From positions 1-30,818 of IMG/VR virus record IMGVR_UViG_2565956711_000013: 30,818 nucleotides of DNA; one strand, 5' to 3'. Positions 22,052 through 22,180 of this stretch are shown in pieces. The first letter of the stretch is position 1, and every line of letters starts with the position of its first letter. This DNA comes from a virus. Taxonomy: Duplodnaviria; Heunggongvirae; Uroviricota; Caudoviricetes. The notes under the pieces were generated by a model. The model was given only the letters and a program-made list of their open reading frames with translations, was not told where the DNA came from and did no database searches. Position numbers and translations under genes: made by a program.

Positions 22052-22094
22052 ATGCGGCACTCCTGGTTAAATTTCATTTTTCGCGGGTATAAAA

Positions 22095-22155
22095 AAACGA
22101 TGGGGCGGGCAGTCCGGAAGGCGGGCGGGCGCAGAGATTTACCCCCCCCCTCCCT
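22095..22155. other. Candidate DNA-packaging (cos-like) region
   Basis: HNH-to-terminase intergenic region carrying direct GGGCGGGC repeats (22103-22110, 22123-22130), a C9 homopolymer (22142-22150) and an A-rich tract (22091-22097). Confidence 0.3.
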
Positions 22156-22180
22156 GGCTGCCATCAGATGCGACTGATTA

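Follow-up and report, generated by a model that had tools for sequence, protein, structure and literature searches.

In phage lambda, the cohesive-end site (cos) is divided into cosQ, cosN and cosB, and Feiss-lab work has placed the terminase-binding arm beside the gene of the small terminase subunit and cosQ on the last-packaged side. The cosB arm contains terminase-binding repeats, and cosQ helps the arriving motor and nuclease to recognise the end. Lambda makes 12-nt 5′ overhangs (GGGCGGCGACCT) with the Nu1/gpA terminase and needs no HNH protein. In phage HK97, the HNH homologue gp74 stimulates the cleavage of cos by terminase (PMC9410871), and the ends are 10-nt 3′ overhangs (PMC9410871, Fig. 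1 legend). The Discussion of the same paper gives 10-nt 5′ overhangs for lambda and 12-nt 3′ overhangs for HK97, in conflict with its own legend; the legend is backed by a later paper (PMC11331095), and the numbers in the Discussion are apparently swapped. The minimal binding site of the HK97 small terminase subunit (TerS) spans +15 to +29 (CTAACCCGATTTTTT) and is made up of ACCCG and an A-tract, and a fragment from −20 to +80 is enough for binding (PMC11331095). In the temperate Shigella flexneri phage SfI, run-off sequencing of virion DNA from HNH and TerS primers, compared with the prophage, revealed a 10-nt gap, 5′-TGCCCGCCCC-3′, from which the authors deduced packaging of the cos type (PMC3636060). 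Sites have also been postulated for SfV, SfII and SfIV, ‘postulated’ being the word of the SfI paper for SfV (PMC3636060). Here, a probable site of this type is described in the IMG/VR virus record IMGVR_UViG_2565956711_000013 (Caudoviricetes), of which positions 1 to 30,818 were analysed as one stretch, called the window throughout; the element under study is the non-coding gap at 22061-22180.

This 120-nt gap separates the HNH gene from the P27-family TerS gene, as delimited by open reading frames (ORFs) and Pfam matches, and the order on the minus strand is lysis genes, HNH, cos, TerS, large terminase subunit (TerL) and portal. With high confidence, the gap is the cos site of an SfV/SfI-like temperate phage with an HK97-type, HNH-assisted terminase. 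A sequence-only reading had placed an HK97-like cos site at this HNH-terminase junction, and the described phages bear that placement out, since the 10-nt end mapped in SfI falls on 22102-22111 and the genome ends of HK97 lie in the same register. The SfI string TGCCCGCCCC is the reverse complement of window 22102-22111, and the SfI record carries TGCCCGCCCC at its end and restarts with GTCGTTTTTTT. Positions are numbered from the cut on the sense (minus) strand, on which −10 to −1 correspond to window 22111 to 22102 and +1 to 22101. The predicted cohesive end of the window (TGCCCGCCCC, −10 to −1, 22102-22111, minus strand) would have staggered nicks on either side, with predicted cuts at 22101/22102 and 22111/22112, and we infer this position strongly from homology. 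Because the run-off reads of SfI leave a gap and not an overlap, the template 5′ ends would be recessed, and the SfI-type overhang should have 3′ polarity, which agrees with the 10-nt 3′ ends of HK97. For the window end, position and sequence follow by homology from the SfI experiment, and those on HK97 supply its 3′ polarity along with the need for HNH. By sequence comparison, the window cos is a new allele of a cos type already known in close relatives such as SfI.

The likeness to HK97 extends across the cut. In HK97, and also in HK022, cos lies between the HNH gene (gp74) and the TerS gene (gp1). The HK97 record ends with GGGCA-G9-ATCAAATCTTCAAAACCTTTGCCCCAAATGAC-CGCCGCCAAA and starts with GTTTGAATTTAACGCTAACCCGATTTTTTT (GTTTGAA...), which gives GAC-CGCCGCCAAA-GTT in HK97 against GAC-TGCCCGCCCC-ATC in the window, with a C-rich 10-nt end in the same register in both. 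The window TerL shares 25% identity with HK97 gp2 (E=3e-30) and the window HNH protein 31% with gp74 over 70 amino acids (aa; E=6e-7), and each pair falls into the same Pfam family. The differences lie elsewhere: the overhang differs at 6 of the 10 positions, the right arm differs, the TerS families are unrelated in sequence, and the HNH gene is 319 nt away from cos in HK97 but 70 nt in the window.

Relatives of the site were compared in four sets, namely phage records found by BLAST, contigs matching a 26-mer of the right arm, contigs matching G7-ATCAAATC, and 80 loci retrieved by the TerL protein. The last set, with TerL identities of 56-100% and 48 non-redundant loci aligned, is unbiased towards DNA motifs. 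In these sets the left flank of the cut, TTCCGGAC (−18 to −11, 22112-22119, minus strand), is the same in the S. flexneri phages SfV, SfI, SfII and SfIV (Sf phages) and in at least 100 viral contigs, and its GAC stands directly ahead of the bottom-strand nick position. Around the cohesive end, a dyad-like frame (G/T)AC-N10-(G/A/C)TC (window 22099-22114) is found family-wide, including loci L280-L359, as in GAC-TGCCCGCCCC-GTC in SfI and GAC-CGCCGCCTCA-GTC in the Klebsiella-type sites. With each predicted nick falling 5′ of (G/A)TC on the respective strand, the frame suggests symmetric nicking.

The cos core is single in the window, with no second core. A lambda-type cos was also considered and rejected, as TerS belongs to Terminase_4 (P27), an HNH partner is present and there is no cosN: the lambda cosN sequence GGGCGGCGACCT had no match with up to one mismatch in the window, and matches with two mismatches occurred at chance level. 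Headful (pac) packaging, in which case the region would be a mere intergenic spacer, is scarcely credible next to the defined ends of SfI, an HK97-family TerL with an HNH partner, which is typical of cos phages, and a non-coding region that is more conserved than the flanking genes.

The database records of the relatives vary in where they are opened. The linear records of all four Sf phages begin within the HNH-TerS gap; those of SfV and SfIV start 7 nt to the left of the overhang mapped in SfI (TCCGGAC-TGCCCGCCCC), and that of SfII begins directly after the HNH stop codon (GenBank U82619.2, KC814930.1, KC736978.1; loci L001-L008). As these starts are offset from the SfI-mapped overhang and only the SfI record is cut there, the ends of the SfV, SfIV and SfII records are conventions and not physical ends. 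In phage vB_EcoM-689R6 (ON470584.1, locus L011), a run of N lies exactly over the TerS ribosome-binding region beside cos, and this run may be an assembly break at the physical genome ends.

The sequence-only reading had also drawn attention to short repeats and a nine-C run in the gap. Both are present: GGGCGGGC occurs at 22103-22110 and at 22123-22130, being embedded on the plus strand in GGGGCGGGC (22102-22110) and GGCGGGCGGGC (22120-22130), and nine C stand at 22142-22150. A third exact copy of GGGCGGGC, at 7364, is unrelated. The three copies in the window compare with 1.64 expected, and at least three were found in 24 of 100 shuffles, while two copies within 40 nt arose in 6 of 400 first-order Markov simulations. 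The nine-C run is the sole run of seven or more G or C in the window, and a run of nine G or C appeared somewhere in 70 of the 400 simulations. The composition statistics of the repeats and of the run are only mildly unusual, and their significance rests on the relatives.

The repeats were suggested to be binding sites of the small terminase subunit, and here the relatives speak against the suggestion. Two identical 8-mers set 20 nt apart, about two helical turns, are locally uncommon, as the simulations indicate, and terminase-binding repeats are known in lambda cosB; a direct-repeat TerS site is nonetheless very improbable. The first copy (22103-22110) lies inside the mapped 10-nt cohesive end. 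The second (plus strand 22123-22130) lies in a variable spacer, TCTGCGCCCGCCCGCC (−34 to −19, 22120-22135, minus strand), which has the lowest information in the alignment and which in the TerL-retrieved set keeps a constant length of about 16 nt with free sequence. The spacer reads GTGACCTGACGTC in the Sf phages, GCGCCCGACCGCC in E. coli CE0021a, GCGCCCGCCCGAC in CP55, GCGCCCGCTCGCC in the metagenomic locus L373 and GCGACCGCGCGCC in others. A perfect second copy of GGGCGGGC is found in the window only, the relatives all having an imperfect copy or none: it is missing from SfI, SfII, SfIV and SfV, phages with an identical TerS over the compared 116 aa (the N-terminal ones in SfI), and single substitutions break it in CE0021a, CP55, L373 and L299. 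Among the phages with the same or nearly the same TerS, the second copy was absent or mutated in all. CE0021a, in which the copy is broken, encodes the same HNH protein (116/116 residues) and a TerS that matches in 160 of the 161 residues, so that a perfect second copy is dispensable for these two proteins. Furthermore, the site of the HK97 TerS (+15 to +29) lies across the cut from the second copy, and for its binding a fragment beginning at −20 suffices. The second copy would be a product of drift, with the length of the spacer mattering and its sequence not.

A better candidate for TerS recognition is the right arm. This arm, ATCG-T7-ATACCCGCGAAAAATGAAATTT (+1 to +33, 22069-22101, minus strand), is a predicted cosB-like site on grounds of conservation and analogy with HK97. 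It is 100% identical between the Sf phages and the E. coli relatives, it is kept in a Klebsiella phage whose matched stretch, including coding flanks, is about 79% identical, and it is the block of highest information among the loci retrieved by TerL protein, in which its consensus is T-tract-A(T/C)(A/G)CCCGCGAAA(A/T)AT(G/A)AAATTT. In both HK97 and the window, ACCCG and then an A/T tract follow downstream of the cut, where the HK97 TerS binds. On account of its position, its conservation and the ACCCG-plus-A/T-tract in common with HK97, T7-ATACCCGCGAAAAATGAAATTT at +5 to +33 (window 22097-22069) is, by analogy, the likely TerS site.

On the other side of the cut, a third conserved block was found. 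On the sense strand, the nine-C run is a G9 run within a G-rich box, GGGAGGGGGGGGG (−53 to −41, 22142-22154, minus strand; G9 at −49 to −41), which is followed by TAAATC (−40 to −35, 22136-22141, minus strand), a variant of the (A)TCAAATC that is conserved after the box, as recognised from the HK97 register and the protein-retrieved set. In HK97, a G9 is followed by ATCAAATC (−51 to −35); AAATC stands at −39 to −35 in both, while the G9 is at −51 to −43 in HK97 and at −49 to −41 in the window. Over the 48 aligned loci, information is high in the G box, in AAATC, in GAC together with the first bases of the overhang, and in the right arm, but not in the spacer. In every locus examined in the TerL set, a G-rich box lies at nearly constant spacing from the TerL start; even in the loci lacking an obvious AAATC match, a box of 9-12 G in 13 nt was present in all 27, again at a near-constant distance from TerL. 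The box is followed by (T/A)(C/A)AAATC or by a related TCAAAAGT or CAATCTCTGG variant. A search of viral contigs with the 15-mer G7-ATCAAATC gave 122 matches, about 113 of which are HNH-cos-TerS-TerL junctions, and the motif occurs together with four or more distinct types of right arm and TerS; the matches include loci L148-L262 (IMG/VR matches to GGGGGGGATCAAATC), and in HK97 (NC_002167) the motif stands at 39681-39697. From this diversity of partners, the reader of the box is probably a component other than TerS.

The nine-C run had been regarded as unusual and prone to length variation, and these two points fared differently in the window lineage and in the wider family. The run is a one-substitution variant of the conserved box: the closest relatives have GGGAGGGGGAGGG-TAAATC, with one A-to-G difference and an unchanged length, and the Sf phages have GGGGAGGGGCGGG-TCAAATC. 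No length variant was found in the window lineage, and no second copy of the window G9 was found either, the nearest relatives having an interrupted box that is equally long in total. In HK97-type sites, the run does vary. Among the 122 matches to G(≥7)-ATCAAATC, runs of 7, 8, 9, 10, 11 and 13 G were counted 46, 40, 19, 11, 5 and 1 times, respectively; 13 HK97-type copies with identical flanks of 25 nt upstream and 42 nt downstream have runs of 7, 8, 9 and 11, and one 8-member group shows a G5/G4 difference. Judged from these sequences, the variation in run length is real in the family, and some of it may be homopolymer sequencing error. The change in length extends away from the cut, leaving the distance from AAATC to the cut unchanged.

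Such variation could also be taken for a slippage-driven contingency switch acting on the expression of packaging genes or on packaging efficiency, for which the HK97-type runs of different length within identical flanks and the G5/G4 group would be the natural evidence. This is very unlikely, as the region has no promoter-like site, the tract lies outside ORFs, with 90 nt between it and the start of TerS, most members of the family have an interrupted, non-slippery box, the window lineage shows no length variants, and part of the differences may be sequencing errors. An RNA-level role of the gap, as an intrinsic terminator or a structured leader between HNH and TerS, is less probable still. 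The G-rich box can pair with the C-rich stretch that precedes T7, the Sf GGGGCGGG and CCCGCCCC form a perfect 8-nt inverted repeat, and the minimum free energy fold of the window pairs the G9 with the spacer. Against this, HK97-type and Klebsiella-type sites have lost the complementarity of G box and overhang, the fold energy does not surpass that of shuffled sequences (z=−1.04), no promoter- or terminator-like site (terminators: 0) and no Rfam match above noise were found in the region, and late transcription must read through into TerS. A hairpin or cruciform of the G box and the C-rich overhang, perfect in the Sf phages and lost in these other two types, was likewise rejected.

As to what the block does, we tentatively propose, at somewhat less than even confidence, that the G box and (A)TCAAATC (−54 to −35) form a third cos subsite common to HNH-dependent HK97-type modules. 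The proposal, put forward with the same reserve in all its parts, is that the block is held at a fixed distance from the cut even though the TerL proteins are only about 25% identical, that its reader is TerL, HNH or the motor bound to the portal, and that it acts as a termination (cosQ-like) or nick-positioning signal, its poly-G form being by nature a hypervariable tract (G7-G13) which either tunes the signal or is neutral. The tripartite logic would be the same as that of lambda, with a nicking site, a terminase arm on the first-packaged side and an element on the last-packaged side. A cosQ-like role may be inferred by analogy; the likeness of the G box to cosQ is positional only. The G-box/TCAAATC block is undescribed in the recent HK97 papers and reviews searched, the original HK97 and SfV genome papers being outside this search. 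Literature searches for poly-G together with cos site, HNH or terminase gave nothing, and those for the cohesive-end strings gave unrelated primer matches only.

Comparison with SfI places a mosaic boundary within the site. The window and SfI share the HNH-cos-TerS(P27)-TerL order, the cohesive end TGCCCGCCCC, the whole of −19 to −1 and, as far as the start of TerS, the right arm, except for +1, which is A in the window and G in SfI. They differ in the box (GGGGAGGGGCGGG in SfI, GGGAGGGGGGGGG in the window), in TCAAATC against TAAATC, and in the spacer (GTGACCTGACGTC against GCGCCCGCCCGCC). Over the compared region (21712-22600), identity to SfI is 98-100% at +1 to +350, on the TerS side, and 58-82% at −1 to −450. 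By these sequence comparisons, a mosaic junction lies at about −19 (window 22120), inside cos, joining an SfI right arm to another left arm. As the drop in identity coincides with cos, the HNH-side and terminase-side halves of the packaging module have been exchanged at or beside the cut.

The window allele itself is rare. Searches of viral contigs and GTDB genomes with a 40-mer, then a degenerate 39-mer, gave no match to the exact allele and returned only eight DA33137-type relatives. A scan with the 18-mer GGTAAATCTCTGCGCCCG found 18 and 14 stretches in the metagenome and genome collections, respectively, of which only L373 is a true relative; the other matches are due to chance, about 17 being expected for an 18-mer in 596 Gb. 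Among 5,426 complete E. coli genomes, the cos family is matched in 1111 (about a fifth), and the exact window variant is missing, the best match having 98.4% identity. This rarity, together with a G9 run and a perfect second repeat seen in no other genome or contig examined, would fit a cos-derived but non-functional site in a defective prophage, with the G9 and the GC-rich spacer as signs of decay. Such decay is improbable, as HNH, TerS, TerL and portal are intact ORFs with full-length family matches, the window retains every position that is conserved across the family, and the changes are confined to the spacer and to the box, where G7-G13 occur naturally, including the G9 of HK97.

Several points weigh against the reading of the gap as a functional SfI/HK97-type cos and have to be set beside it. 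For the window element itself, the cut would follow from homology. The left arm is diverged, with 82% identity to SfI at −50 to −1 and 58-82% further left, and the HNH protein is 80% identical to that of SfI (93/116 residues), so that a functional difference or a decayed prophage is possible. The role of the G box is a proposed one. The translation start region of TerS, which lies in the right arm, could explain part of the conservation there. Transfer of the HK97 TerS site is an analogy, as the window TerS is unlike HK97 gp1: BLASTP found no similarity between the two (E>6), they fall into PHROG 83 and PHROG 5601, respectively, and no Pfam family matches gp1. In an AlphaFold model, the window TerS shows a confident core in which long helices are joined by a β-hairpin (mean predicted local distance difference test score, pLDDT, 76.8). 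No sequence relative of this protein was found in the PDB, and in a fold search of the PDB the HK97 TerS (6z6e, 8pop) had the highest template modelling (TM) scores, 0.35-0.50, but with E values of 2-5, which are not significant. The mismatch with gp1 leaves the membership of the SfI/SfV subgroup unaffected, because that subgroup has the P27 TerS of the window.

Taken as a functional cos site, the element would work as follows. Terminase and HNH would nick concatemeric DNA on both sides of TGCCCGCCCC (22111 to 22102) within the dyad-like frame GAC-N10-(G/A)TC, one nick falling 5′ of (G/A)TC on each strand, and 10-nt 3′ cohesive ends would result. The left genome end would be on the side of the TerS gene and the right end on the side of HNH. 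The P27 TerS would bind the right arm at +5 to +33, and packaging would run from this arm through TerS, TerL and beyond. On the last-packaged side, the G box and TAAATC (−53 to −35, 22154-22136) would serve as the third conserved subsite; a component in common with HK97 (TerL, HNH or portal), and not TerS, would read it, and it would most plausibly help the arriving motor to stop and cut. The spacer would only set the distance, and the G9 would be a one-base variant of the box, tolerated since a change in length would shift only the distal side.

The genes around the site agree with those of the Sf phages. Over the structural module, which reaches from cos to the tail genes, the window shares 96-98% identity with SfV, SfI, SfII, SfIV and two induced E. 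coli phages. The HNH endonuclease (116 aa, 22181-22531, minus strand; Pfam HNH E=2.4e-10, PHROG 144) is the last gene before cos. By sequence reading, a putative AGGAG ribosome-binding site (22060-22064, minus strand) stands 8 nt ahead of the TerS ATG (22051-22049), a start codon annotated identically in SfV, SfI and the E. coli relatives. TerS of the P27 family (161 aa, 21566-22051, minus strand; Pfam Terminase_4 E=2.4e-21) is followed by TerL (577 aa, 19819-21552, minus strand; Pfam TerL_ATPase and TerL_nuclease), the nuclease and ATPase that would cut cos and package the DNA, and by the portal protein (18445-19671, minus strand; Pfam Phage_portal E=2.9e-98). The TerS C-terminus and TerS-TerL junction (window 21566-21575) exist in two forms, one of 161 aa ending in NPFLTI in the window and CE0021a, and the other of 164 aa ending in NPFLKIIES in SfV, CP55 and most database homologues. 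An ORF of 113 aa in the opposite orientation (22671-23012, plus strand) is situated between the HNH gene and the lysis genes Rz/Rz1; it has no Pfam or PHROG match, is annotated as hypothetical WP_023277410.1 in E. coli CE0021a and CP55, and could have entered the late operon as a moron-type insertion.

For the prophage in the window, the physical ends would be placeable to the base, and the element belongs very probably to the cos and not the pac class, which is relevant to predicting transduction behaviour. The comparison provides a base-resolution map of the HK97/SfV-type cos, made up of the cleavage frame, the probable arm for TerS, the spacer with its free sequence and the conserved G-box/TCAAATC block. 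For HK97, packaging and cos cleavage have been reconstituted in vitro (with a 784-bp cos fragment from −312 to +472, TerL, TerS, gp74 and proheads; PMC9410871), which makes the role of this block directly testable. Furthermore, the breakpoint at cos illustrates how the HNH-side and terminase-side halves may be exchanged between packaging modules.

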